64,000 nucleotides of DNA from Pseudomonadales bacterium (GTDB lineage Bacteria; Pseudomonadota; Gammaproteobacteria; Pseudomonadales; UBA7239): assembly GCA_046347205.1 (NCBI GenBank), contig JAXMGN010000002.1:670224-734223 (forward strand). The letters are read 5' to 3'. Positions 1-14,906 of this stretch are shown here, one piece after another; position 1 is the first letter of the stretch, and each line of letters begins with the position of its first letter. The notes under the pieces are model-generated. The model saw only the letters and a program-made list of their open reading frames with translations, did no database searches and had not been told where the DNA came from. Both the position numbers and the translations under genes were made by a program.

Positions 1-2
1 TT

Positions 3-233
3 ATCGATCAGCCTTCTGCTGATTGCGGTGATATTAATCGACTGATTGACGCGCAACTGAGCCGTGTGCGTGCACGATTGAAAAGCATGCAAGCACTGGA
101 ACAACAACTCACTGTGTTGAGTAGCCGATGCGGTGAAAATCACGCTGCAAAAGAATGTGGCATCTTGCATGAATTGGTGGCAGCCGCGCACGGTGAAGCG
201 TGTGCTTGCCATGAAGGTGGATTGCATGAATAA
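3..233 (+). CDS. MerR-family metal-responsive transcriptional regulator, C-terminal fragment (N-terminus outside window)
   Basis: The frame is open from the window edge to TAA at 231-233. My own translation, not in the ORF track: ...RLIDAQLSRVRARLKSMQALEQQLTVLSSRCGENHAAKECGILHELVAAAHGEACACHEGGLHE*. It shows a coiled-coil dimerisation helix followed by a Cys/His-rich tail, as in CadR/ZntR/CueR-type regulators. Confidence 0.5.
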   Translation: MDQPSADCGDINRLIDAQLSRVRARLKSMQALEQQLTVLSSRCGENHAAKECGILHELVAAAHGEACACHEGGLHE

Positions 234-439
234 CAAATTGCAAAACGGTGTATGCGCAGCATTGGCTTCTGCCGCACTGTTCGATGCAAGTACGCAGTTT
301 GAAAATTTGTAAGCTACATAGTTCTGGGTGCAAACATAATAATAGCCATACCTACCTAGCTATTCTACCTGCCCACCAAGCAGAGTATCGACTTAACGTT
401 AGGTGGCGAATCTAAAACCACGAGGTCATCGTTTTCGTT

Positions 440-1228
440 ATGCAAAATAAAAATCCAGTTGCCATTTTTGGTGCAGGCGCAGCAGTTGGAACACTTGGTG
501 GTTTAATTGGGCTTGGTGGCGCAGAATTTCGTCTCCCGCTTTTAATTAGTGTTTTTGGTTTCAGTGCGCTTCCGGCAGTTATTCTTAATAAAGCCATGAG
601 TTTGGCGGTTGTTGCTACTGCGTTACCTTTTAGGGCGAACACTGTTCCATTTTCACAAGTATTTAGTCACTGGCAAATTATTGCCACATTGCTTGCCGGC
701 AGTTTATTGGGTGCATGGTTCGGTGCTGGGTGGGCAACAAAATTTAAATCACACACTTTGTATCGCGTGCTTGCTATCTTGCTTGTTGGTATTGCAATAG
801 CTTTAATTTTTGGCCACAACCCTAGCGCATCATCTGCTCCATCTCTGTCTGGCCTGTTACTTGCAATCGTTGGCGCTGTTGTTGGTTTTGGCATTGGTGT
901 GGTTGCTTCGCTCATGGGCGTTGCTGGAGGAGAGTTACTTATACCCGCCATCGTGCTTTTATTTGGTGCAGACCTCAAGCTTGCGGGTAGTCTTTCACTT
1001 GCCGTCAGTCTTCCTACCATGATCGTAGGTTTCACACGTTACAGCCGTGACCAAAGCTTTTCTGTTATTCGCTCAGAAAGTCGTTTTGTTCTTATCATGG
1101 TCGCAGGTTCACTTGCTGGTGCATTCATTGGTAGTCGGCTACTGGGCATTGTTCCAACTGAATATCTTTTGCCCATTCTCGCAGGTATTCTTTTAATTTC
1201 TTCGGTTAAAGTTTGGCACCATGCATAG
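440..1228 (+). CDS. TauE/SafE (TSUP, DUF81) family anion exporter membrane protein
   Basis: 262-aa polytopic hydrophobic ORF with Gly-rich helices (GGLIGLGGAEFRLPLL, MGVAGGELLIPA), typical of the two-repeat DUF81 architecture. Confidence 0.8.
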   Translation: MQNKNPVAIFGAGAAVGTLGGLIGLGGAEFRLPLLISVFGFSALPAVILNKAMSLAVVATALPFRANTVPFSQVFSHWQIIATLLAGSLLGAWFGAGWATKFKSHTLYRVLAILLVGIAIALIFGHNPSASSAPSLSGLLLAIVGAVVGFGIGVVASLMGVAGGELLIPAIVLLFGADLKLAGSLSLAVSLPTMIVGFTRYSRDQSFSVIRSESRFVLIMVAGSLAGAFIGSRLLGIVPTEYLLPILAGILLISSVKVWHHA

Positions 1229-1475
1229 TCACCACATAACAAGTCGCTCAAGCACGTTAACATTCATTCGATGGACAGCCTCAGTCTTGGCATGTTTTGC
1301 GCTTTATGTTAGGCCTTCGCTAGCATCTCTGTAAGCATCGACAGAGAACCCAACAGCCAAGGCTAGTTACTGGGTTTAATGTGGATTAGCACAAGTAATC
1401 CATTCTGACTTGGCAAGGCCCAGAAAAATATTTCACCATTATAAAATATGTTCCAGTGGGCAAAAAATCTGATCC

Positions 1476-2561
1476 TTATTTAGGTTTTTTCTTGAAATCG
1501 GAGTAACTTGTATATTCTTCGGCTATAGATCCATCAGAAAATGTCAGCTGGTTCGTTTTTAAACGAACGCCTAATTTCCCTTCTGGCAGATTCCATAAAG
1601 GGAGATGGCCATCCATAAACTGGTTAATATCTACTTCCCATACCATAGGCTGTTGCACGCCCTTTGCGAGAGGCTGTTCAAATACAGCATGAGCCTTCAT
1701 AGTAAAAATAGTAGTCTGATTAGCATCAACTACAAAAATTTCACCACTCCACTTAGCCACCGGAACATCTGACCCTGCCTGAAAGATAATCTGCAGCAAG
1801 ACCTTTTTATCGTAGCCCCACTTATCATCTACGCGGTTGGCTTTTTGCGCATCAACCAATCCAATATTTTGCTGCATGCTCTTCTGAATTTCAGCATTCG
1901 CTACAGCCAACCGTTTTTCCTGCTCTTGTTCAATGGCTGTCATCAGCTCAGCAGCATTATTGAATTGCACTAGCTGCCAATATCCACCCTGGTCTCGCAG
2001 CGTGAATTGCATTTCAAGCGGCATATTGAGATCTTCATTAACAAATGGCACGTACACATTGGCCACTTTTCCCTGTTTTACAATTCTGTAATCAATTTTC
2101 GTCTTATCATTAATGCCAAAGTTAGACATCATTCCGTCTAGGTTGGCATTTTCTTGTTTTGTGGAAGTAGAAGTAGGGATTACCGCTTGTCCATTGCCGG
2201 CAGCATCATTGCTACCTACATTTCCTGTTTCAATATATTTCAGTGTCGAATTTTTTAATCCTGTCAGCAGTGCAGGCTTCATCATCTGAATCATGCCAGC
2301 GCCAATAGCCTGCCCCATTTTTCCCCAACCCGATTCATTGGTATCAGCAGCCATTTTGGCCATCTGGGCACCAACAACATCGTCAACTAAACGACCATAC
2401 AGAGTGTCTGTATCTACGTGCTTTTGGAACAAAACGACATCATGCGTTTGCACCGATTTACGAATTTGCAAAATGGAATAAGTTGGAGTCGTGGTGTAGT
2501 AGTAATACCCGCCCCCTGTCGCCAGCAAAATGACCAGTACTGCTATGACAATCCGTTTCAT
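1476..2561 (-). CDS. membrane-anchored hypothetical protein with a DUF2939-like N-terminal region
   Basis: The ORF is trimmed to the internal ATG at 2561, which is preceded by GGAGAA. The N-terminus MKRIVIAVLVILLATGGGYYYY is a single TM anchor followed by a soluble region, as in DUF2939 proteins. The C-terminal ~150 aa has no motif I recognise. Confidence 0.55.
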   Translation of the reverse strand: MKRIVIAVLVILLATGGGYYYYTTTPTYSILQIRKSVQTHDVVLFQKHVDTDTLYGRLVDDVVGAQMAKMAADTNESGWGKMGQAIGAGMIQMMKPALLTGLKNSTLKYIETGNVGSNDAAGNGQAVIPTSTSTKQENANLDGMMSNFGINDKTKIDYRIVKQGKVANVYVPFVNEDLNMPLEMQFTLRDQGGYWQLVQFNNAAELMTAIEQEQEKRLAVANAEIQKSMQQNIGLVDAQKANRVDDKWGYDKKVLLQIIFQAGSDVPVAKWSGEIFVVDANQTTIFTMKAHAVFEQPLAKGVQQPMVWEVDINQFMDGHLPLWNLPEGKLGVRLKTNQLTFSDGSIAEEYTSYSDFKKKPK

Positions 2562-2700
2562 TGGTTTCTCCTTTTTGTGCTCATTGTAGCGACCTAATGA
2601 TCCCGGACACAGCCTCATTGTTCCTCCAAATACCCCACATACAAACAAATGGGGGGGTAATTTGGAACAACGGCTAGATGCTATACATATTATTTCATTT

Positions 2701-2717
2701 ATGCCATATAATGGCAT
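2701..2717. promoter_or_regulatory. perfect 7-3-7 inverted repeat ATGCCAT-ATA-ATGGCAT containing a TATAAT box, candidate abiE promoter/operator
   Basis: Seen directly in the sequence, 26 nt upstream of the abiEi ATG. AbiEi antitoxins are known to autoregulate through inverted repeats in their promoter. Confidence 0.35.
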
Positions 2718-2742
2718 TTATCAAATATTTAATGTAGCTGAA

Positions 2743-3561
2743 ATGAGCAAAATTGCGGGTATAGGCAAAAGCAGCAGAATAAAGCTCAGCAAAGTGCTTG
2801 AGCGTTATCCTAGGCTTATTTCAGCCGCATCTGTGGCTGAGGTGCTTGGCGTGGCTCCCAGCGAGGCAAATCGTGTGCTCGCCCGTTGGAGCCAGTCTGG
2901 TTGGGTCAATCGGGTCAAGCGTGGCCTCTACTCTCCCGTGTCTCTGGATACTGGGGCATCCACCCTTGCGCTAGAGGAACCCTTTCTAGTGGCAGACACC
3001 ATCTACGGGCCAGGGTATGTAGGAGGATTCAGTGCCGTGAAGCACTGGGATCTCTCAGAGCAAATTATTGAAACTGTCTATTACTTCACCACTAGGCAAG
3101 TCATGGACAGAAACCCTATTCACGGATCTGTGCAATTCAAACTGAAAACCGTGAAAGCGGCGAAGATGTTTGGATTAAAAGCCATCTGGATAGGCAGCAA
3201 GAAGATCAATGTAAGCGATGCCACTAAAACTATCGTTGATATCCTCAATGATCCAAAATTAGTCGGCGGCATGAGTATTGTCTATGACATTTTCAAAGAG
3301 TACTGCGAATCAGAATATTGCGATTTCCAGAAGCTATTAGACTACTGCCACAAAATGGAAAACAAAACGATATTCAAACGCCTGGGCTTTATGATCGATA
3401 CGAAAATGGCCAATATCCCCAAAGAGCTAAACAGCCTAGAAAAATTAATTTCGACTGGATACTCAAACTTTGATCCGTTAATTAAAAAAAATCACATCAT
3501 TGAAAAGTGGAAGATAAAAGCGCCAGTTTCATGGGTAGAAGAATATGATAGAAAAAAATGA
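2743..3561 (+). CDS. abiEi: type IV toxin-antitoxin / abortive infection antitoxin AbiEi (transcriptional regulator)
   Basis: The N-terminal wHTH-like segment LISAASVAEVLGVAPSEANRVLARWSQSGWVNRVKRGLY and the overall ~270-aa size fit AbiEi. The gene overlaps the downstream AbiEii gene by 17 nt. The start was chosen at MSKIAG. Confidence 0.8.
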   Translation: MSKIAGIGKSSRIKLSKVLERYPRLISAASVAEVLGVAPSEANRVLARWSQSGWVNRVKRGLYSPVSLDTGASTLALEEPFLVADTIYGPGYVGGFSAVKHWDLSEQIIETVYYFTTRQVMDRNPIHGSVQFKLKTVKAAKMFGLKAIWIGSKKINVSDATKTIVDILNDPKLVGGMSIVYDIFKEYCESEYCDFQKLLDYCHKMENKTIFKRLGFMIDTKMANIPKELNSLEKLISTGYSNFDPLIKKNHIIEKWKIKAPVSWVEEYDRKK

Positions 3562-4927
3562 GATTCTGACAACAGCCGAAGAACTCGGCCTGAATCCTGA
3601 TACCGTAGAAAAAGACTACGTGCTGGGCTGGCTACTTCATGGCATCCACAACCATGCTGCGACAAAGGGATGGGCATTCAAAGGCGGAACGAGTTTAAAG
3701 AAATGTTTTTTTGAAACATTTCGATTTTCAGAAGACCTGGATTTCACCCTATCAGATAATGGCCAATTGGACGCCGATTTCCTTAAGTCAACCTTTATTG
3801 AAATCATTGAACAGCTATCAGAAGAAGTAGGCATTGAGTTTTTACCAGATGAATTCAGGTTTAAAATCATTGACAAGGGAAATGGAAATTATTCTTCTCA
3901 AGGAAAAATCACCTACAACGGGCCATTAAGAAGGGCACGCGGTGTAGCAACAATAAAATTGGACCTTACAACAGATGAAGTCCTGGTTCTAACTCCAGTT
4001 GTAAACCGCGTTCACCACCCCTATTCCGACGAACCCGCAAATGGAATACATGCAACGTGCTATGCATTTGAAGAAGTGGTTGCAGAAAAAATACGTGCTT
4101 TAGCGCAAAGGTTACGCCCAAGAGACGTTTATGACGTAGTTCACTTCTTCCGAAACAGGGACATGATTGGAAATCCAAAGCTGGTACTCAGTGTTCTGGA
4201 TAAGAAATGCCAGTTCAAAAATATCGGCATTCCGACCTTTGAAGATATAGAGCAGCATGCAAAATTGGATGAACTGGAACCACAATGGGAACACATGCTT
4301 GCGCACCAACTACCAGCGCTGCCACCTATAGAAACATTCTGGCAAGATTTACAGCCATTTTTTGACTGGCTTGAAGGTCATCTGGAAGTTGAACAAATCG
4401 AGCCCAGCTCGACAATTACAGGTGATGTCTTCCACGTCAGTAGATTTTCCAGATATGGAAATATGCAATCTGTTCTTCATCAAATTCAGTTTGGTGCCGC
4501 AAATAGAGTTTGCATAAAACTTACATACAGCGGGAAAGAGCGCACGGTTGAGCCACTGTCTTTTAGAATAGCAAGTACAGGCAATAGACTATTTTTTGGA
4601 TTTGAACGTGAAGCGGGCCATGTGAAAGCGTATACCATCTCTAATATACAGAGCGTTGCAGTCACAAATATTCCTTATACAGAACAGTACCCCGTTGAGA
4701 TCAGTGCAACAGGAAATATTTCAATGCCGCCTATACGCCGTGAATCGACAGGGCGAATTCATTCAACTGGCATTTCGAGAAGACTTACGCATAGTGCGGC
4801 ACATAAAATTCAATGCCCAGTATGTAACAAAGTTTTTACAAGAAAAAATCCGTCTGACACAGCACTTAACAAACACAAGAACTCATGGGGTGGAAACTGC
4901 ACTGGACGACGCGGGCATCGTATCTGA
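3545..4927 (+). CDS. abiEii: AbiEii/AbiGii-family nucleotidyltransferase toxin with an atypical ~180-aa C-terminal extension
   Basis: NTase motifs are present: FKGGTSLKKCF...RFSEDLDF and EKIRALAQRLRPRDVYDV (DUF1814/AbiEii signature). The protein is 460 aa, against about 250-300 aa as I recall for the family. The extension holds a WYL-like stretch and C424-x2-C427-x16-H444-x7-C452. Confidence 0.85.
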   Translation: MIEKNEILTTAEELGLNPDTVEKDYVLGWLLHGIHNHAATKGWAFKGGTSLKKCFFETFRFSEDLDFTLSDNGQLDADFLKSTFIEIIEQLSEEVGIEFLPDEFRFKIIDKGNGNYSSQGKITYNGPLRRARGVATIKLDLTTDEVLVLTPVVNRVHHPYSDEPANGIHATCYAFEEVVAEKIRALAQRLRPRDVYDVVHFFRNRDMIGNPKLVLSVLDKKCQFKNIGIPTFEDIEQHAKLDELEPQWEHMLAHQLPALPPIETFWQDLQPFFDWLEGHLEVEQIEPSSTITGDVFHVSRFSRYGNMQSVLHQIQFGAANRVCIKLTYSGKERTVEPLSFRIASTGNRLFFGFEREAGHVKAYTISNIQSVAVTNIPYTEQYPVEISATGNISMPPIRRESTGRIHSTGISRRLTHSAAHKIQCPVCNKVFTRKNPSDTALNKHKNSWGGNCTGRRGHRI

Positions 4928-5226
4928 AACATAAGCCGCCGAAACGCTAACGAAATGCACAGATATTCAATGGTGTAAAACAACCATTAACACCCGCAGG
5001 GGTTTTTGTCGTGCAAACACTTCACCCTGTCCACAGCAATGGCGATCAACAATATGAGGATGGTTGTCACGAAGGCTCTTGCATGGTTTTCAAACACCAA
5101 CATCCATAATTTTTATCGCTAAACTTTGTCACTCGCTAACCAGAAACCAATAGGTATTGATAATCTGACTTATCAACACCAACACAACAAAAACCGCTCA
5201 ATTAACGCACCTACAGGAAATTTATA

Positions 5227-6066
5227 ATGGCAAGTAAAGACAATGTTTACATGGGGCCGAATGAGCATGGAATGACCCCAAGAATGTACACCAGTGTTAA
5301 AGGAAAATATTACTATTTCTACGACCCCAATCAACTCATTAAGCATAATGACATTCAAGAAGCAAAGACACTTTTAAACGAAATAGGAATGAAAGATGAA
5401 TCATTTCTTTCTCTTCTTTACTTTATATGGAATTGGAAAAACGCTGAGTTTTTACAGGTAACAAAAGAAGATTACGAAGCAAGAATGCGATCTGCAGCAG
5501 ATCATGTTAAAAAAGCCTACAAAATTATATTAAAACATAATGTGCACAGCAAAATACCAAAACTTAGAGATGTTATTTCCTATGCCAACGCAAGAATTTG
5601 CAAAAAAGTAAATGAAGGAAACAGTAAAATAAAGGTAGATTTTTTTGAATTCAACGAAAATGACACATCTATTAACGCCAGTATTATTACCGTTATGGAA
5701 GCTATTGATAAATATTTTTCAGATTCAACGATTTCTGATTTTTGGCAATTAGAACATTTACGAATGCTTCAACCCGGTGACACAAGGAATGTTAGAAGCT
5801 ATGAAAAGGAAACCATAGTAGAGAAGAAAGAAAAAAAGGGCGGGGTTAAGGTTTGCGCCAAAAGATTAGTTATGGCGTGGATATACATACATTTAAAAAA
5901 CCTAGGGGAACATTATGTTTCTGGAGATAATAAAAACATAATTATCACAAAAATAGCATCTGCTCTGCTAGGAGAAGAAGTAAAACCCGGCGCTTTTTCC
6001 AGCATGTTTCCTGAACAAAGAGATGCTTATTACCTACGCGCCAAACCGGGAGAGGCAAAACTATAG
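5227..6066 (+). CDS. hypothetical protein (no recognisable domain)
   Basis: 279-aa ORF with AGGAAA 7 nt upstream of the ATG. It is AT-rich and Lys/Asn/Ile-rich, consistent with foreign origin. It follows a 300-nt non-coding leader. Confidence 0.6.
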   Translation: MASKDNVYMGPNEHGMTPRMYTSVKGKYYYFYDPNQLIKHNDIQEAKTLLNEIGMKDESFLSLLYFIWNWKNAEFLQVTKEDYEARMRSAADHVKKAYKIILKHNVHSKIPKLRDVISYANARICKKVNEGNSKIKVDFFEFNENDTSINASIITVMEAIDKYFSDSTISDFWQLEHLRMLQPGDTRNVRSYEKETIVEKKEKKGGVKVCAKRLVMAWIYIHLKNLGEHYVSGDNKNIIITKIASALLGEEVKPGAFSSMFPEQRDAYYLRAKPGEAKL

Positions 6067-6071
6067 TTAGC

Positions 6072-6104
6072 GGAGCTTGCCTTCTAAAGGTTGAGACAAG
6101 CTCC
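6072..6104. terminator. hairpin between convergent genes (GGAGCTTG ... CAAGCTCC)
   Basis: 8-bp perfect stem seen in the 48-nt gap between two convergent island genes. There is no good T-run on either strand. Confidence 0.35.
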
Positions 6105-6114
6105 CCTTTATCAG

Positions 6115-7041
6115 CTAGTCTTGAAATATATCAAGGCAGTTTACGCAATCACCAGCACCCTCCCAAATTGCAGTGGAATCAAAAACTTCCATAGTATAGT
6201 CCGCATTGAGAATATTGAAGTATTGCTCAGCCAGCCTACTATCGTGATTTCTATAGTGTGATAAAGCACCAACCAGCCCACGAATACGTATGCAGTCGTA
6301 AAAGCCCGGCGCAAAACGCTTGTCATGCACAAACTGATTCGAGTAAACCATCAATCCAGAGTAAGGGTTATGTATTAGGACATCTTTCGCATTCTTAATA
6401 CCAATAACAGGCTCTTTTTTAAAGCACGCCAGCTTCTGAACTTTCATGCGAATCTCAAAGCGGGAAACCTGATTACCACCCCCTGACTTGTTATATACCA
6501 CTAAATATTGATTTGATTTTTCAGACCCGTGTTTTTGTGATAACAGACCATATTCACCATCAAAGGTTAAGCCCTTTAGATCTGAACCATCATGAAACAC
6601 AACCACATGATCCGGAATGCAGCCATACACATCAAACGTTGCATCCATTCTTGTGATATTTGCTCTCTCCCAGATTAAGCTGTAATCATCTTTCAGTAGA
6701 TACTTTAGAACGTTGACAAGTAGTTTACTGTCTTTAGTTGTTATCTTTGCAGGATTGTATTCCAGAGAGAATCCATTGGCCTGCATGTTGGGTTTATTGC
6801 CGTAACTAATTGTTGCCAGTGATTTCTTATCGTTGTACAGCAATATTATGTTGCCATATACGCTACCCTTCCTATTGGTTCTGACAAACTGAAACTTTTT
6901 ACTCTGAAATGCTTTCTCAGCACGATCAACAATGCAGCCAATGCCAGTTAAAGATATAGGTAGCGTAAACGCTATTTTATCCAGAAAGATATTGGTAACA
7001 CTCAAAGATTGCTGTTGCTGGATCACAAGTGGATTTTTCAT
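6115..7041 (-). CDS. putative replication initiation factor (Rep_trans-like)
   Basis: The motif pattern ITRMDATFDV ... YLVVYNKS ... SRFEIRMK resembles the RxDxxxD / YdK / RxE blocks of Rep_trans-family initiators. The gene lies next to a helicase gene in an integrative element. Confidence 0.5.
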   Translation of the reverse strand: MKNPLVIQQQQSLSVTNIFLDKIAFTLPISLTGIGCIVDRAEKAFQSKKFQFVRTNRKGSVYGNIILLYNDKKSLATISYGNKPNMQANGFSLEYNPAKITTKDSKLLVNVLKYLLKDDYSLIWERANITRMDATFDVYGCIPDHVVVFHDGSDLKGLTFDGEYGLLSQKHGSEKSNQYLVVYNKSGGGNQVSRFEIRMKVQKLACFKKEPVIGIKNAKDVLIHNPYSGLMVYSNQFVHDKRFAPGFYDCIRIRGLVGALSHYRNHDSRLAEQYFNILNADYTMEVFDSTAIWEGAGDCVNCLDIFQD

Positions 7042-7148
7042 AATCTTCTCTCACCTAATGTGATTGAATTAAATTGCAGAAAGTAGCTACAACCTGCTAT
7101 TAGCCCAACAGGTTATTGACAGCCCCTTCTATTGCATGCGCTGCTGCT

Positions 7149-7188
7149 AAAACTGGAGCCAGTGGTAAGCCCCCATTGGCTCCAGTTT
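7149..7188 (-). terminator. rho-independent terminator after the helicase gene
   Basis: 12-bp perfect stem AAACTGGAGCCA / TGGCTCCAGTTT, followed on the minus strand by TTTTA. It starts 8 nt downstream of the stop of the 7196-8971 CDS. Confidence 0.5.
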
Positions 7189-7195
7189 GGGCGAC

Positions 7196-8971
7196 TTATA
7201 GGCTGATCTTTAGCTTGTAGAAGGAATGCCACTTGCGGCTACCATTAGGCCTTAATCTGGTGGCCAACCTGTTATCGCTGTTTGTACTCAGCATCCCTAT
7301 TAAATTTAATGTTTTGTAGAACGACGTTTTGCTCGTTGGAAGCCCTACCTCTTGAAGCCAATCAAGTCCAAAGAGTTCACTTGGCTTAAAATTAGCTTCC
7401 AGCAGTATTGTTCCGTCTTCTGCACTGACAATGCCCGCGCACTTCTTACGTCTAGACTTGGATTTATTCTTACATTTTTCAAAGTATGTCTTTTCATCAA
7501 CATCAAAAGACAGCCGATTCAGTTCAACAAGACACCTAACCCTGTTTGCTATTAAATTTTTGAAAGAATGCCCCTGTGCGATACCATCCTGCATGGATGC
7601 TAGTGTCACCATATAATCCAATGCGCTATGACGGATGGCACTACTTCCAGTCTCATCTATACACTTTTTCTTTATAAGATAATCCATATATACATGAAGC
7701 GAAAACAGAAGGACAGCATATTGCTCTGCCGTTCGGTTGTGTTGATCATCGCTTAACTTTTCAGATATAGAATTGCAATACTCGTCATAATTGCCAATCC
7801 ATAACTTCTCGATACTTTCGATATTTCTAATAATGTACGCAACAAACAGTCGCATTGACTTAGCTAGATCCCCACTCTTAGCCAGCACACGAAATGGCGA
7901 TATATCACTTTTCTTAATTCCTGTAGAGTCACAAAATATTACTCTTTTCAACAAAGATTCTTGCACAACCTCTGGCGGATGCTCACCTGTTACTACCAAT
8001 ACAGGGTAATAATCCTGCGGGCTTGTACCGACAACATCTCTGATATTCGTGTTTGCAATTCCTCGAATAACCTTCGCGGCAATATCATTGTTAGTTTTCA
8101 AATTTCGCTTGTCTTTATCATACACAAAGTCATCTAATACAATTAGCGTGCCGCTAACAGACCTTATGGATTTTAAAATAGAAGCCAGACTTGATTCCCA
8201 ACTCAAGAACGCGTTTTTTCTGTGCCGCTTCTGACCATAGCAAGCCTGCATTACTCGAGCTGTTTCGCTCTTGAATGTACCAGAGGGGCCAACAAGGTAT
8301 AGCGTTGCATAAGGTAAGTCTTGAATCACAGTAAGAGCCGATCTAAGTATATAAAGCAAGACCGTAAAACCCCACATCTGATTCTCTTTCCCACCAACAT
8401 CCAATAGCCTTAATAGTGTTGGCACATAATATTTCTTGGTATTTTTATCTCCTATCTTAGCTCCAAAATCGTATCCTTTTCGAAATCCATCGAAAATCCC
8501 TTTTGATGATGCCGAAATATCTTTCCCCCCTATTGCCCCACTTTCATGAATAAATGCCACCTGCTGGCCAACTTTTGCATATCCGGGATTCTTGTAAACT
8601 GTGACCCTATTTGATGGATCAACAGTGTTCTTCAAATAGTCCATCACCAATTTTTTTTCGTGTGGGCTTTCATAATAAATTTCAGCTCTTGTTCCAAAAG
8701 CTGCAAAAGCCCAGTCTAACTTTTTATAATCCTTGGCAGCTATTTCAGGCTGCCCTATAAACTGGCCATACTCATCAAGAATTTCAATAGCAAAGTATGT
8801 TTCAATCTCTTTTTCAGCGTCTACAATTGATCTTTCCTCAGCAATCCTAGGAAAAAAATTCGTTAGCCTCTTATTAGTAACGCCATTCTTACTGTCTCCG
8901 AACAAGTAAAGCCCATCCGGACCCTTGCTAACATATAACGACTCTTTTTTCACATTTGTAACCATGCTCAT
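7196..8971 (-). CDS. DUF927-type P-loop NTPase, putative mobile-element replicative helicase
   Basis: Walker A is LVGPSGTFKSE and Walker B is TLIVLDDF. The block SWESSLASILKSIRSVSGTLIVLDDF and the N-terminal region match the layout of DUF927 helicase-like proteins found in islands and plasmids. Confidence 0.6.
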   Translation of the reverse strand: MSMVTNVKKESLYVSKGPDGLYLFGDSKNGVTNKRLTNFFPRIAEERSIVDAEKEIETYFAIEILDEYGQFIGQPEIAAKDYKKLDWAFAAFGTRAEIYYESPHEKKLVMDYLKNTVDPSNRVTVYKNPGYAKVGQQVAFIHESGAIGGKDISASSKGIFDGFRKGYDFGAKIGDKNTKKYYVPTLLRLLDVGGKENQMWGFTVLLYILRSALTVIQDLPYATLYLVGPSGTFKSETARVMQACYGQKRHRKNAFLSWESSLASILKSIRSVSGTLIVLDDFVYDKDKRNLKTNNDIAAKVIRGIANTNIRDVVGTSPQDYYPVLVVTGEHPPEVVQESLLKRVIFCDSTGIKKSDISPFRVLAKSGDLAKSMRLFVAYIIRNIESIEKLWIGNYDEYCNSISEKLSDDQHNRTAEQYAVLLFSLHVYMDYLIKKKCIDETGSSAIRHSALDYMVTLASMQDGIAQGHSFKNLIANRVRCLVELNRLSFDVDEKTYFEKCKNKSKSRRKKCAGIVSAEDGTILLEANFKPSELFGLDWLQEVGLPTSKTSFYKTLNLIGMLSTNSDNRLATRLRPNGSRKWHSFYKLKISL

Positions 8972-9179
8972 CTCCCATACGCCAGTTCTATACCAGCCTG
9001 CTGATTAAGGTTGAGGGGGGGCAATACTTAGCCCCTCAAGCGCCACCTTAGCCACCTTGATTCAGCAACTCCCCAATTGTTAAAAATTGAAATAAATTCT
9101 CATTTTTAGCAATTGATGCCAGCCATAAACTGAATTGCAAGAATCCCAACAGCGATATATTGGCTTGGGGTTTTCATAC

Positions 9180-9554
9180 ATGGGCTCATCTCAACAACTA
9201 GCATTCTTACCTCGGGTTATCCGAGTTAAAGATGCCCATCGCTATCTAGGCATGGATAAGACGACATTTGCGCGTGAAATCCGTCCCTACCTGACATTGA
9301 TTAAGATTACGAATAAAAGCCGCGGATTTGAGCGAGTTGATATTGATCACGCATTTGATGTATACATATGTGGTCGATGCTGTCCGCCGAAAAAGCCTCT
9401 GCCAATCGGAGACAACATATGCGAAAGCAAACAGGTATCAACTTTGACACCTCAAGTAACTGCTGGATCATCGACAAAAAAGTTAAAGGAAAACGCATTC
9501 GCGAACGCACTCAGTACAGCAAAGAGCAGCGCGAAGAAGCGGAACGCCGACTAA
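9180..9554 (+). CDS. excisionase/AlpA-like helix-turn-helix protein (C-terminus overlaps int)
   Basis: The segment VIRVKDAHRYLGMDKTTFAREIRPYLTLIKITNKSRGFERVDIDHAF fits the HTH_17/excisionase pattern. The ORF runs 136 nt into the integrase gene in another frame, so its true 3' end is uncertain. Confidence 0.45.
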   Translation: MGSSQQLAFLPRVIRVKDAHRYLGMDKTTFAREIRPYLTLIKITNKSRGFERVDIDHAFDVYICGRCCPPKKPLPIGDNICESKQVSTLTPQVTAGSSTKKLKENAFANALSTAKSSAKKRNAD

Positions 9555-10540
9555 CCTTTCTGTCACAGCAAGTGTACGAACAGGAAACCTATGGACTTAG
9601 ATCCAAACATACCTTTAGAGAAGCAGCAGTGAAATACTGCGTTGAAAATAAACACCTGCGGACTATTGCGTGGATCGAAGAACATTTAGGAAGACTGGAT
9701 CCGTACCTTGGGGATTACGAACTCAGCCAGATACACCGTGATTGCCTTGGACTGCAAAAACTGGTGAATGACCTACGTGCGGCAAACCGGAAACGGAAAA
9801 CCATCAACAGTTATCTGGAACTGGTGCGCCGGATATTAAATAAAGCTGCCTATGAGTGGCGTGACGAGAAGAACTTGAGTTGGCTTGAAAAGGCACCGCG
9901 AATACGCTTACTGGATACCAGCGATTCTCGCGCGCCACAGCCTATCAGCTGGGAGGATCAGCGAAGGTTACTGCCTGCCCTCGCCAACCATTTGGCAGAC
10001 ATTGCCCTGTTCATTATCAATACGGGGGCACGATCTGAAGAAGTACGGTTGCTACAGTGGGAATGGGAAGTAAAAGTGCCGCAAGGCGTGGCCTTCATCA
10101 TTCCAGACTCGGTGGTGAAGGGAAACACAGTTGGTGAAAGGATGCTGGTGTGCAATGAAGTGGCCACTTCTGTGGTCAACCATCAACGCGGCAAGCATGC
10201 TCAACACGTGTTTACTTTCACACCCAGAGGTGAAGGCTCGGAACCACGCCCTATCAGCTACCTGAATAACAGCGGGTGGCGGACAGGCTGTGAAAGAGCT
10301 GGATTACCAAGGCTGCATATCCACGATTTGCGACACACATTTGGCTATCGCTTACGGCAAGCTGGTGTGGACAAACAAACGCGTGGTGAGCTACTGGGAC
10401 ATGCTGCAAGTGACATGACGGAGCACTATTCCATGGCTGATCTGAAGCACTTGTTTCAGCAGGTTAACCTGATCACAGTGCCAATTCAGGCTGACGCTGT
10501 GGTGACGTTGAAACGCAGAAAGATGGCTTTGGTAGGATGA
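9419..10540 (+). CDS. int: tyrosine-type site-specific integrase
   Basis: Catalytic C-terminal motifs are present: HIHDLRHTFGYRLRQAG ... LLGHAASDMTEHY (R-H-R-Y family). The N-terminal arm-type domain reads GINFDTSSNCWIIDKKVKGKRIR. The gene lies adjacent to a tRNA gene. Confidence 0.9.
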   Translation: MRKQTGINFDTSSNCWIIDKKVKGKRIRERTQYSKEQREEAERRLTFLSQQVYEQETYGLRSKHTFREAAVKYCVENKHLRTIAWIEEHLGRLDPYLGDYELSQIHRDCLGLQKLVNDLRAANRKRKTINSYLELVRRILNKAAYEWRDEKNLSWLEKAPRIRLLDTSDSRAPQPISWEDQRRLLPALANHLADIALFIINTGARSEEVRLLQWEWEVKVPQGVAFIIPDSVVKGNTVGERMLVCNEVATSVVNHQRGKHAQHVFTFTPRGEGSEPRPISYLNNSGWRTGCERAGLPRLHIHDLRHTFGYRLRQAGVDKQTRGELLGHAASDMTEHYSMADLKHLFQQVNLITVPIQADAVVTLKRRKMALVG

Positions 10541-10589
10541 CTGCAGTGACTACTTGGAAAAATGTCACCCAATTCTCCCACAGGTCAGA

Positions 10590-10621
10590 AACAAAAAAGG
10601 CCTACATTTCTGTAAGCCTTT
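10590..10621 (-). terminator. rho-independent terminator downstream of tRNA-Lys (can also serve int on the plus strand)
   Basis: The minus strand reads AAAGGCTTACA-GAAA-TGTAGGCCTTT followed by TTTTTT. This is an 11-bp stem with one G-U pair and a GAAA loop. Confidence 0.5.
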
Positions 10622-10629
10622 GATTTATA

Positions 10630-10705
10630 TGGTGGGTCGTGATGGATTCGAACCATCGACCAATTGGTTAAAAGCCAACTGCTCTACCGACTGAGCTAAC
10701 GACCC
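10630..10705 (-). tRNA. tRNA-Lys (anticodon UUU)
   Basis: The reverse complement GGGTCGTTAGCTCAGTCGGTAGAGCAGTTGGCTTTTAACCAATTGGTCGATGGTTCGAATCCATCACGACCCACCA folds as a cloverleaf with a CTTTTAA anticodon loop. It is nearly identical to E. coli tRNA-Lys as I recall it, and CCA is encoded. Confidence 0.95.
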
Positions 10706-10755
10706 TCGAAAGAGGCGCTCATCTTAATGTCTGACGACAAAAAAACAAGCCTTTT

Positions 10756-11466
10756 TTACTGTAATTTCTGTGATTGATAGCGCGTGGGATCACTGATTCC
10801 CGCCTGCTGAAATCCCTCGCGCCGCAAACGGCAACTGTCACAAACCCCGCATGCGGCTCCCGCTATGTCTGCCTGGTAACAGGACACCGTCTGCGCGTAA
10901 TCCACACCGAGCGCAGTGCCCTGCTGAATAATCGCCGCCTTGGTCAGTTGCAGCAGCGGCGCATGAATGGTGATGGTGCGCCCCTCTACACCGGCCTTGG
11001 TAGCGAGGTTGGCCATCGCCTGAAATGCTTCGATATAGGCAGGGCGGCAATCGGGATAGCCGGAGTAATCCACCGCATTCACGCCGATAAAAATATCACG
11101 CGCATCCAGCACTTCCGCCCAACCCAAGGCAATCGACAGGAACACTGTATTGCGCGCCGGCACATAGGTCACCGGTATGCCGTCACTGGCATCCGTGGGC
11201 ACAGCAATACTGCTATCGGTCAGCGCGGAGCCACCGATGGTGGAGAGATCCAGCGTCACCACTTTGTGTGCCTCCGCCCCACTCGCGCGCGACACCGCTT
11301 CCGCCGCCGCCAACTCCGAACGGTGACGCTGCCCGTAATCAAACGCCAAGGTGTAACAGCTGTAGCCCTGCGCGCTTGCCAGTGCCAGTACCGTAGCGGA
11401 ATCCAAACCGCCTGATACCAACACCACGGCTTTTTTATGAGGTGTTGGATCAGCGCCCACGCTCAT
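10756..11466 (-). CDS. queC: 7-cyano-7-deazaguanine synthase
   Basis: PP-loop [10 protein letters not shown] and C-terminal zinc Cys cluster [10 protein letters not shown]. Confidence 0.9.
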
Positions 11467-13625: not shown

Positions 13626-14906
13626 TTAAGGGGTACGAAAAGGACCCCAAGCCGGCTCTCGCACGTCGACATTCTGCACAGGCACGATAACTTGAACCCC
13701 ACCATCCACCGATACGGTAGACAGCACTGAACGCCCGCCGCGCTTGGTGGCGTACATAATCATGCGGCCATTCGGCGCCAACGCAGGAGATTCATCGAGA
13801 CTGGTTTGCGTCAGAATTGTCACGCGGCCGGATTTTGCGTCTTGCACCGCCGTATGAAAAACCCCATCGCGGCGATGGATAAAGGAAATCAGCTTGCCGT
13901 CTTTGCTCATCCGACCGTGGGCGTTGTAATCCCCTTCGTATGTAATGCGCTCGGTCTGCCCCGAACTCAACGACACTTTATACAGTTGCGGCTTGCCACC
14001 ACGACTGGAAGTAAAAATGATACCGCTGCCATCAGCCGTCCAACTCGGCTCGGTGTCGATAGCGGGATGATTGGTGATTTGGCGCAACTGCCGACTGGCA
14101 ATATCCATCACATAAATATCGGGGTTACCGCCTTTCGATAAGCACAGCGCCAAGCTGCGGCCATCCGGTGAAAACGAAGGCGCACCGTTCAAACCAGGGA
14201 AGCTGGTCAAACGCTCACGGCGACCGGTTGCCAGCGTTTGCAAATAGATACCAGGGCGACCGCCTTCAAACGACACATACACAATTTGTTTGCCATCGGG
14301 CGACCAATCAGGCGACAGCACGGGCTCTGTGCTATTCATCAACACTTGCTCACGCGCACCGTCTTGATCTGCCATATACAGTTTTACGTTGCCCACACCA
14401 CCACCGACATACACGATGCGCGTTTGAAACACACCACGAAAACCGGTCAGCGTTTCATACACTTGGTCGCTAATGTAGTGAGCCACATCGCGTAAATTGT
14501 TTGAGCCGCCCTGAATGGTTTTGCTGAACATCACTTTCTGGCCATTGACGTCACACAAAATAAAATTGGCCGCAAAACCACCATTGCCCAGCGGCGATAA
14601 CTGCCCTGTTACCAAATACTCTGCGCCCGTCATACGCCAATCGCGGTATACCACCTCTGACTCTGTATGCGGGAAAGACAACATGCTCTGCTTGTCGATA
14701 GGCTTGAATTGCCCACTGCGGTACAAATCGCTCGACACAATTTCCGCTATTTGATCACCACTAAAACCACTGCCGCTCCACGAAAAAGGAATCACGGCAA
14801 TTGGCGTAGGATTGCGACCGCCTTTGTCGATATTGATGGTCAATCTTTGTGCGTACACCGACGTGCACACAAAGAAAAACACGAACGATAGAATAATTTT
14901 TTTCAT
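13626..14906 (-). CDS. tolB: Tol-Pal system beta-propeller protein TolB
   Basis: Signal peptide and repeated SPDG/WSPDG propeller motifs (SPDWSPDGKQIVYVS, PSFSPDGRSLA). Confidence 0.95.
   Translation of the reverse strand: MKKIILSFVFFFVCTSVYAQRLTINIDKGGRNPTPIAVIPFSWSGSGFSGDQIAEIVSSDLYRSGQFKPIDKQSMLSFPHTESEVVYRDWRMTGAEYLVTGQLSPLGNGGFAANFILCDVNGQKVMFSKTIQGGSNNLRDVAHYISDQVYETLTGFRGVFQTRIVYVGGGVGNVKLYMADQDGAREQVLMNSTEPVLSPDWSPDGKQIVYVSFEGGRPGIYLQTLATGRRERLTSFPGLNGAPSFSPDGRSLALCLSKGGNPDIYVMDIASRQLRQITNHPAIDTEPSWTADGSGIIFTSSRGGKPQLYKVSLSSGQTERITYEGDYNAHGRMSKDGKLISFIHRRDGVFHTAVQDAKSGRVTILTQTSLDESPALAPNGRMIMYATKRGGRSVLSTVSVDGGVQVIVPVQNVDVREPAWGPFRTP

Follow-up and report, generated by a model that had tools for sequence, protein, structure and literature searches.

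AbiE systems, as described in Lactococcus lactis and Streptococcus agalactiae, are bicistronic modules in which the antitoxin gene comes first and overlaps the toxin gene, and they are classed as type IV toxin-antitoxin or abortive-infection systems, with an assignment to type VII lately proposed. The antitoxin AbiEi, of the COG5340 type, combines a winged-helix N-terminus with a C-terminal domain and regulates its own expression via inverted repeats in the promoter (PMC3985639, PMC7319586), and the toxin AbiEii is a nucleotidyltransferase with the DUF1814 motifs I-IV, of which motif I/II follows the pattern hG[GS]x15DhD (Dy et al., PMC3985639). The DUF1814 toxins known as MenT, from the MenAT systems of Mycobacterium tuberculosis, belong to the same nucleotidyltransferase fold family and provide its mechanistic model, i.e., the nucleotidylation of tRNA acceptor stems (PMC7450476, PMC10435456). 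Here we examine a block of four genes at positions 1476-6066 of a 64,000-nucleotide (nt) stretch of contig JAXMGN010000002.1 from a Pseudomonadales bacterium (hereafter the window, meaning the whole stretch analysed), in which an AbiE pair lies between a gene for a DUF2939-like protein and an orphan gene, ORF4.

All four genes were verified at the positions given in an earlier note on this DNA: the DUF2939-like gene at 1476-2561 on the minus strand, and abiEi (2743-3561), abiEii (3545-4927) and ORF4 (5227-6066) on the plus strand. The block is AT-rich, its GC content of 0.35-0.45 standing against ~0.50-0.56 in most of the window, and it lies in strain-variable DNA anchored at a tRNA-Lys gene, which bears out the earlier description of mobile-island DNA with an AbiE pair among its genes. 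What did not hold was the proposal that the block is a composite anti-phage locus. From domain identities, family sizes, synteny, strain polymorphism and junction positions, all of which could be read directly, we consider it likely that the block consists of three functionally independent units lying side by side in the strain-variable DNA at tRNA-Lys. Its recognisable defence system is an AbiE subtype that is already catalogued, and not the new system that had been proposed.

This interpretation is carried by where the genes occur elsewhere. An AbiE pair accompanies the DUF2939-like gene in none of its seven contexts outside this locus and adjoins neither of the two relatives of ORF4, and three distant IMG/VR loci with long AbiEii proteins, 41-43% identical to that of the window, have only AbiEi and AbiEii in common. 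Because these three loci share no third gene, we regard abiEi-abiEii, a canonical AbiE pair, as a self-contained two-gene module. The families are also unequal in size, with thousands of long AbiEii proteins against 15 clusters of DUF2939-like proteins and three ORF4 proteins, and a sister strain keeps AbiE unchanged with ORF4 exchanged. These findings run counter to a reading of all four genes as one anti-phage locus, in which an AbiE variant with a long toxin would work with the DUF2939-like protein and ORF4 as accessories. Such a reading can point to the physical adjacency of the four genes, to the 181-nt intergenic region from which abiEi and the DUF2939-like gene diverge and whose palindrome overlaps promoter-like sites in both directions, and to the presence of AbiE beside the DUF2939-like gene in every contig of this population that carries the neighbouring TauE gene and is long enough; in view of the distribution of the genes elsewhere, we nevertheless regard it as highly improbable.

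The AbiE pair and its long toxin

The predicted antitoxin and repressor AbiEi (272 amino acids, aa) aligns with its residues 5-265 to positions 4-262 of the 263-position PADLOC profile PDLC02271, a full-length match (E = 9.7e-76), and scores 29.9 bits against Pfam AbiEi_4 (cut-off 25, E = 5.9e-7). The predicted toxin AbiEii (460 aa) matches Pfam AbiEii (PF08843) over residues 33-266 with 132.8 bits (cut-off 22.5, E = 2.4e-38) and PADLOC PDLC02317 (396 positions), the partner of PDLC02271, over residues 1-394 (E = 1.7e-143). The match to the two PADLOC models is end to end for both proteins, unlike only in that the last ~65 residues of AbiEii (a linker and a zinc finger) extend beyond the model, though they are present in most of the closest homologues. 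As in L. lactis and S. agalactiae, the antitoxin gene comes first and overlaps the toxin gene (by 17 nt), AbiEi has the winged-helix N-terminus and C-terminal domain of its counterparts, an inverted repeat lies in the promoter, and AbiEii has motifs I-IV of the DUF1814 nucleotidyltransferases. Motif I/II consists of G47-G48, 15 residues that include R60, and D64-L65-D66; motif III is K182-IRALAQ-R189 and motif IV is R193-D-V-Y-D197, and the motif residues are invariant or nearly so in an alignment of 41 homologues. A serine, S62, stands two residues ahead of the first motif II aspartate, at the position corresponding to T65 of S. agalactiae AbiEii, at which that protein is auto-phosphorylated (bioRxiv 10.64898/2026.01.19.700257). 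The window pair differs from the L. lactis and S. agalactiae systems in its toxin, which is ~170 aa longer owing to a WYL-like segment and a C2HC finger, and in being known from sequence alone.

Upstream of abiEi, an imperfect 28-nt inverted repeat (2680-2738, no strand assigned) contains the perfect palindrome ATGCCAT-ATA-ATGGCAT at 2701-2717, which overlaps a TATAAT hexamer (2707-2712) that precedes the abiEi ATG by 31 nt. Since AbiEi is known elsewhere to autoregulate via such repeats, this one is a candidate operator, and AbiEi probably binds the palindrome over its own -10 box. Biochemical activities and any phage-resistance phenotype are, for this locus, predictions throughout. AbiEi, with its winged-helix repressor and antitoxin domains, would repress its own promoter and neutralise AbiEii; AbiEii, a DUF1814 nucleotidyltransferase in which all four catalytic motifs are intact, would upon release stop growth through the nucleotidylation of an RNA target, much like MenT toxins acting on tRNA acceptor stems. 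Structural comparisons are distant: the only solved chain annotated as an AbiE/AbiG-type toxin, AbiGII chain 9hlo_B, is reached by the AbiEii family profile with no more than E = 4.7e-7, and the profile also matches PDB 6y56 (E = 2.1e-5), which is annotated just as an uncharacterized protein and which we take to be a MenT toxin. Unlike the window AbiEii, MenT toxins are ~290 aa long and have no C-terminal modules.

The length of AbiEii had been called abnormal, and its extension had been said to fit nothing described. The protein is indeed long in comparison with the 238-position Pfam model, but 460 aa is normal within its own subfamily. A homology search returned 4967 matches at E ≤ 1e-3, and the best 120 of these include dozens of 447-472 aa and a second class of ~400 aa, with named proteins among the 120 from Pseudomonadota, Bacteroidota, Calditrichota and Bdellovibrionota. 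The coverage of residues 1-394 by PDLC02317 and the hundreds of homologues of 450-470 aa likewise contradict the view that the extension is without precedent; to judge from these matches, the long AbiEii with a WYL-like segment is a common architecture that is already filed as AbiE in PADLOC.

In the alignment, AbiEii falls into three parts, i.e., the nucleotidyltransferase domain, a conserved segment at residues ~310-394 (nt 4472-4726, plus strand) and, confined to the long class, a variable basic linker that leads into a finger motif. The conserved segment is WYL-like: Pfam WYL (PF13280) gives weak matches in 11 of the 41 homologues (best E = 3.8e-4), and one homologue bears the UniRef name of a WYL domain protein, while a profile search of the PDB with AbiEii returned no WYL protein. 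The finger motif C-x2-C-x15/16-H-x7-C is conserved across the long class and has cysteine, not histidine, as its fourth ligand; in the window it reads C-x2-C-x16-H-x7-C (C424, C427, H444 and C452; nt 4814-4900, plus strand). Pfam zf-C2H2 matches 13-14 of the 41 homologues weakly, and the AbiEii tail finds C2H2 fingers in the PDB at best with E = 0.003. We label the extension as WYL-like plus C2HC finger. It would most likely add a surface for nucleic-acid binding or sensing. A literature search that combined AbiEii with WYL found no title or abstract concerned with such a fusion. The extension is common to many of the closest homologues and may account for target finding or infection sensing by some AbiE toxins.

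The DUF2939-like gene and its neighbours

In the product of the gene at 1476-2561 (minus strand; 361 aa), a membrane anchor at the N-terminus is followed by a conserved region of ~225 aa, and a beta-sandwich forms the C-terminus. Residues 20-100 match Pfam DUF2939 (PF11159) with 34.3 bits (cut-off 24.8, E = 3.1e-8), and a hydrophobic anchor is evident in the alignment, which together bear out the earlier identification of a membrane-anchored DUF2939-like protein. The start codon chosen here, the ATG at 2561, has an AAGGAG Shine-Dalgarno sequence upstream, and homologues of 356-359 aa begin at the equivalent methionine. Both of these favour 2561 over the start of a longer 413-aa open reading frame (ORF) that extends up to 2717, which is probably an over-call.

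A search of 5.8 billion proteins gathered the homologues into 15 clusters, a small family. In their alignment, the N-terminal hydrophobic anchor follows MKR/K, and the strongly conserved region of ~225 aa includes ...LRDQGGYWQLVQFNNAAEL. The C-terminus varies, being a beta-sandwich module of ~135 aa (as in the window), a SPOR domain or both, with SPOR fused in 10 of the 15 homologues. SPOR is a periplasmic peptidoglycan-binding domain. Given the N-terminal anchor and the SPOR fusions in homologues, the protein is probably a single-pass inner-membrane protein with its bulk in the periplasm. An AlphaFold (AF2) model shows the C-terminal module, with high confidence, as a beta-sandwich (pLDDT ~90). 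Foldseek comparison with the PDB returned generic beta-sandwiches (ApaG, RhoGDI, CDTb; TM ≤ 0.48 on the target), and comparison with BFVD returned a single unnamed viral protein of 164 aa (E = 3e-5, TM 0.59 on the target), which gave no functional clue.

The nearest catalogued entry is PADLOC PDC-S55 (E = 7.7e-8), a short DUF2939 protein that is itself listed as a candidate only. The likeness comprises the anchor and the start of the DUF2939 domain, with residues 1-100 corresponding to positions 1-98 of the 182-position profile. A full-length match was not obtained, just half of the profile being covered, and the window protein is unlike PDC-S55 in being twice as long, with the additional conserved region and the beta-sandwich. 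Literature searches on DUF2939 and on PDC-S55 found no paper.

The family was found in eight distinct contexts, and in four of them a known defence gene is the immediate neighbour, which is far above what a random gene would show. Besides this locus, with AbiE, these are L001/L002, where the immediate upstream neighbour, encoded on the same strand, is a type IIG restriction enzyme of 1645 aa, a DrmD-like SNF2 helicase lies farther upstream and an Orf5/type IV restriction endonuclease/HEC-06-like gene lies downstream; Pseudomonas jinjuensis (L004), where the upstream gene encodes a 1668-aa enzyme of the same type IIG family and Zorya II lies on the downstream side; and L015, with a convergent Avs4 gene. 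The other four are a plasmid-like contig with Rep3 and NikA-like genes and a type ISP enzyme 5.6 kb off (L009), an array of small unannotated ORFs that we read as phage-like (L016), a set of small unknown ORFs (L020) and a metabolic neighbourhood (L006). The two type IIG enzymes (L001 3043-9071 and L004 2935-9074, spans that include the DUF2939-like gene) belong to PADLOC family PDLC03614, and in both cases the DUF2939-like gene follows directly downstream, in the same orientation and after a gap of 21-59 nt; the lineages are divergent, and enzyme and DUF2939-like protein may form a functional pair.

With defence genes as immediate neighbours in half of the contexts, and AbiE in none outside this locus, it is plausible that the DUF2939-like gene is an independent defence-island gene, in which respect the earlier note's suspicion that the neighbours of AbiE are themselves defence genes gained some ground; for ORF4 it did not (see below). 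The gene would be a mobile one-gene module of defence islands, plasmids and phage-like DNA, and our best guess is that its product could act as an envelope-level exclusion factor that blocks the entry of phage DNA or of conjugative DNA. The family, small and uncharacterised, recurs beside restriction, Avs and Zorya genes and is a cheap candidate for envelope-level exclusion.

ORF4 and the probable integrative element at tRNA-Lys

ORF4 (279 aa; 5227-6066, plus strand) has no recognisable domain, as had been stated before: none was found in Pfam, PADLOC, NCBIfam or PHROGs, and a profile search of the PDB was empty. A word-indexed search returned ORF4 itself only, and a full HMMER pass over 1.84 billion representatives added two relatives only (P0137 and P0138; 38% and 40% identity). 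An AF2 model made from the three sequences was too poor for use (pLDDT 51.7). Both relatives, on contigs L012 and L013, stand in the gene order of the window, i.e., an ORF4-like gene on the plus strand followed by genes for proteins of ~308 aa and ~585 aa on the minus strand. L012 continues with a p139-like ORF, an integrase gene and a tRNA-Arg in the same geometry, and the L013 contig stops inside the third gene.

In the window, the corresponding genes follow ORF4 directly. Sharing 35-41% identity with the proteins encoded beside the ORF4 relatives, the product of p308 (6115-7041, minus strand) is a candidate divergent rolling-circle initiator of the RepD/Rep_trans-like type; its L013 homologue matches RepD-like_N weakly (E = 0.009). 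That of p591 (7196-8971, minus strand) is a P-loop NTPase with the Walker A sequence GPSGTFKS, 33-35% identical to its counterparts in L012 and L013, of which the L012 protein has weak AAA matches; a sequence search of the PDB with p591 was empty. A wider search for elements of the p591 type found only Clostridia proteins of 22% identity in genome contigs and none in viral contigs. The small p139 gene (9135-9554, plus strand), upstream of the integrase gene and overlapping it, matches PHROG 13517 (E = 5.1e-13) and is 40% identical to the L012 and 88% identical to the sister-strain protein; the label AlpA-like is our own reading of its sequence, with no helix-turn-helix profile matched. The tyrosine integrase (9419-10540, plus strand; Pfam Phage_integrase E = 2e-14) shares 98% of its residues with that of the sister strain and 40% with that of L012. 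Its ORF opens at 9368 and overlaps the p139 ORF by 136-187 nt in another frame, with the start probably at 9419 as in the sister strain.

Between the window and L012, ORF4 is 36% identical, p308 41%, p591 35%, p139 40% and the integrase 40%. With a divergence equal to that of its neighbours, and the same position and orientation, ORF4 reads as a backbone gene, namely a core gene of an integrase-bearing element that is tied to the p308/p591 replication module, and by these comparisons is neither cargo nor an accessory of AbiE. In the excised circle, the joining of the ends would place ORF4 right downstream of int, and it could, speculatively, be expressed mainly after excision. As ORF4 illustrates, guilt by association can mislead at the edges of islands, where a gene that looks like cargo may be the backbone gene of a tiny integrative element.

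The extent of this element is indicated by the sister strain (L005), which is 99.88% identical to the window over 1-5172, unrelated from there to 9249 and then 94% identical in the p139/integrase region. In between, L005 has genes for a CoiA_N-like protein, DinB, a methyltransferase, a Rep_trans protein (31.9 bits, cut-off 29.6) and a different P-loop protein. Homology thus ends at 5172/5173, 54 nt upstream of ORF4, and the strain-variable segment begins with 5173-5226. TauE and the DUF2939-like gene are present in each of the 23 TauE contigs read, and the contigs that reach far enough continue with AbiEi, AbiEii and then a segment of either the ORF4 type or the CoiA/DinB/methyltransferase type. 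Given the swap from 5173 onwards in L005 and the gene order and co-divergence in L012 and L013, the simplest reading is that 5173-10629 would be an integrative element of 5.5 kb with ORF4, p308, p591, p139 and the integrase gene, with the DUF2939-like gene and AbiE to its left as an older, fixed island remnant.

Further support for this reading comes from the gap between abiEii and ORF4 (4928-5226), which had been described as a 300-nt leader. It measures 299 nt, and at 4960-5147 (plus strand) it contains the frameshifted relic of the 3' end of an S-adenosylmethionine-dependent methyltransferase gene, of the kind that is intact in L005. With the intact L005 protein as query, tblastn gave 70% identity over 46 aa (E = 6e-20) and a second piece in another frame, and in blastn the relic region matched L005 14554-14897, the intact gene lying at 14170-14868. 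A regulatory leader was rejected on these grounds.

The right junction of the variable DNA is the 3' end of a tRNA-Lys(UUU) gene (10630-10705, minus strand; ARAGORN, Rfam). Strains with an identical QueC have the arrangement of the window, or an IS, or MCP-SBP-sulfatase genes directly after the tRNA, and in the alternative arrangements homology to the window stops exactly at 10629. Neither the window nor loci that extend 7 kb to the left of TauE contain the flank native to the empty site, by which the variable region exceeds 17 kb; it includes czc efflux, P-type ATPase, MerR and TauE genes. By exact sequence matches, the window belongs to an uncultured bacterium of the Pseudomonadales/Cellvibrionales that is represented by metagenome-assembled genomes, and one contig that carries the locus is labelled as activated-sludge metagenome.

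P4-like and PICI-like satellites and other small tRNA-associated elements carry int, alpA and replication genes. The element would resemble these in its size of ~5.5 kb, in a tyrosine integrase gene that lies at the 3' end of a tRNA gene, and in its small AlpA-like, P-loop NTPase and Rep-like proteins. It is unlike them in that, beyond the weak matches given above, it has no significant similarity to the replication or packaging families of PHROG or Pfam, and its kind comprises three elements, for which sequences are the only source.

Alternative boundaries and roles

Several observations weigh against the interpretation set out above. In AbiEii, the support for WYL is weak, and the window protein itself has no WYL match at E ≤ 1. 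AbiEi may co-regulate the DUF2939-like gene, since one of the promoter-like sites that the abiEi palindrome overlaps is directed at that gene. The defence association of the DUF2939-like family rests on the eight contexts, the N-terminal half of the protein was modelled with low confidence, and Foldseek with this model gave no PDB match at E ≤ 1e-3. No direct repeat of the kind expected of att sites was found, neither by exact matching in the window (≥ 12 nt) nor by Smith-Waterman alignment, which was also applied to L012 and gave nothing above comparable regions, and the left end of the element at 5172/5173 therefore rests on one strain comparison. Lastly, an 85-nt non-coding stretch with a 7-bp hairpin at 1314-1398 (no strand assigned), to the left of the DUF2939-like gene, is matched in L012 upstream of the ORF4-like gene, and a left end of the island at ~1314, with AbiE and the DUF2939-like gene as cargo, is possible.

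The 85-nt stretch is 90.6% identical to L012 4039-4123, in elements whose proteins share just 33-41%, its hairpin is conserved, and the L012 copy stops 27 nt short of the start codon of the ORF4-like gene. The window has a single copy; apart from the tRNA, nothing in 1-11000 matched Rfam at E ≤ 1, so no family was found for the stretch, and its 21-nt core was absent from the genome and viral contig collections scanned, metagenome contigs giving the same organism only. The stretch could be the end of a past or present element, a site of the oriT or pac type, or a small RNA.

This stretch bears on a different drawing of the boundaries, in which ~1314 to 10629 would be a single mosaic island of ~9.3 kb, with the DUF2939-like gene, AbiE and the methyltransferase relic as internal cargo and with internal recombination accounting for the sister strain. 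The likeness of the stretch to sequence directly upstream of the ORF4-like gene, the single integrase and the AT-richness of the block would all suit it. Yet the sister strain differs throughout from 5173 to the tRNA, its integrase region at 94% identity against 99.9% to the left of 5172, a pattern that fits two elements at one site beside a fixed older remnant, and on the left the variable region reaches beyond TauE by more than 7 kb, so we hold the mosaic island to be rather doubtful. Under either boundary, the DNA that holds AbiE and the DUF2939-like gene is mobile and varies between strains, and ORF4 is part of the integrase module. The standing of ORF4 within that module could still differ from that of a backbone gene if it were a defence or interference gene, i.e., a fixed payload of the element directed at helper or competing phages as in phage satellites. 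Its place at the element end opposite the integrase is a common payload spot of satellites and islands, its GC content of 0.35 is the lowest of the block, no domain is recognisable in it, and in L012 a patatin-like phospholipase gene adjoins its relative; against this, ORF4 diverges at the rate of the four backbone genes, stands in the same place and orientation in each of the three known elements and is missing together with p308 and p591 from the element of the sister strain, whose replication module is another one, as is typical of a module component and not of an exchangeable payload. A payload role is for these reasons unlikely. The phospholipase in question (L012 965-3721, 918 aa) has an inactive HKD domain and a weak PADLOC phospholipase-effector match (E = 1e-6) and lies to the left of the tRNA-Arg element.

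For the DUF2939-like protein, what has to be weighed is whether it is anti-phage at all, or rather a periplasmic accessory of mobile elements that is associated with peptidoglycan or the envelope and serves conjugative entry exclusion or cell-wall interaction, or is a neutral passenger, its defence neighbours being the outcome of shared integration hotspots. The peptidoglycan-binding SPOR domain in most of the homologues, the plasmid-like contig with its Rep3 and NikA-like genes, the one metabolic context, the generic character of the structural matches and the half-covered PDC-S55, just a candidate in its own right, are all in keeping with such an accessory. Four different bona fide defence systems directly adjoining in half of the contexts, and the operon-like arrangement with type IIG restriction-modification genes in two divergent lineages, speak for defence instead, and we hold the accessory role to be quite possible without favouring it over an independent defence-island gene. 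What would be new here is, on the one hand, the DUF2939-like family, with its anchor, periplasmic region and swappable beta-sandwich or SPOR module, as a single-gene envelope-level anti-phage or entry-exclusion factor that is found next to diverse defence systems and recurrently pairs with giant type IIG restriction enzymes of one family, and, on the other, that ORF4, p308, p591, p139 and the integrase may define previously unrecognised minimal tRNA-integrating elements of 5.5 kb; taken jointly, these two proposals are tentative and on balance somewhat doubtful.

Three smaller features of the surrounding DNA were recorded. To the left of the block, a heavy-metal cluster (window 1-1228, L005 1-7684) comprises the czc-type RND efflux, P-type ATPase, MerR and TauE genes; it is missing from strains with an empty tRNA-Lys site and seems to belong to the composite variable region as well. 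In the gap between p308 and p591, a near-perfect inverted repeat at 7150-7188, with 16-nt arms (94% complementary) and a 7-nt loop, could be a terminator or an origin-like hairpin. At the right junction, comparison of window 10586-10629 with L026 3587-3625 shows that the element brings its own hairpin and T-tract, which replace the native tRNA terminator, the two versions having TTTTTTGTTTCTG in common.

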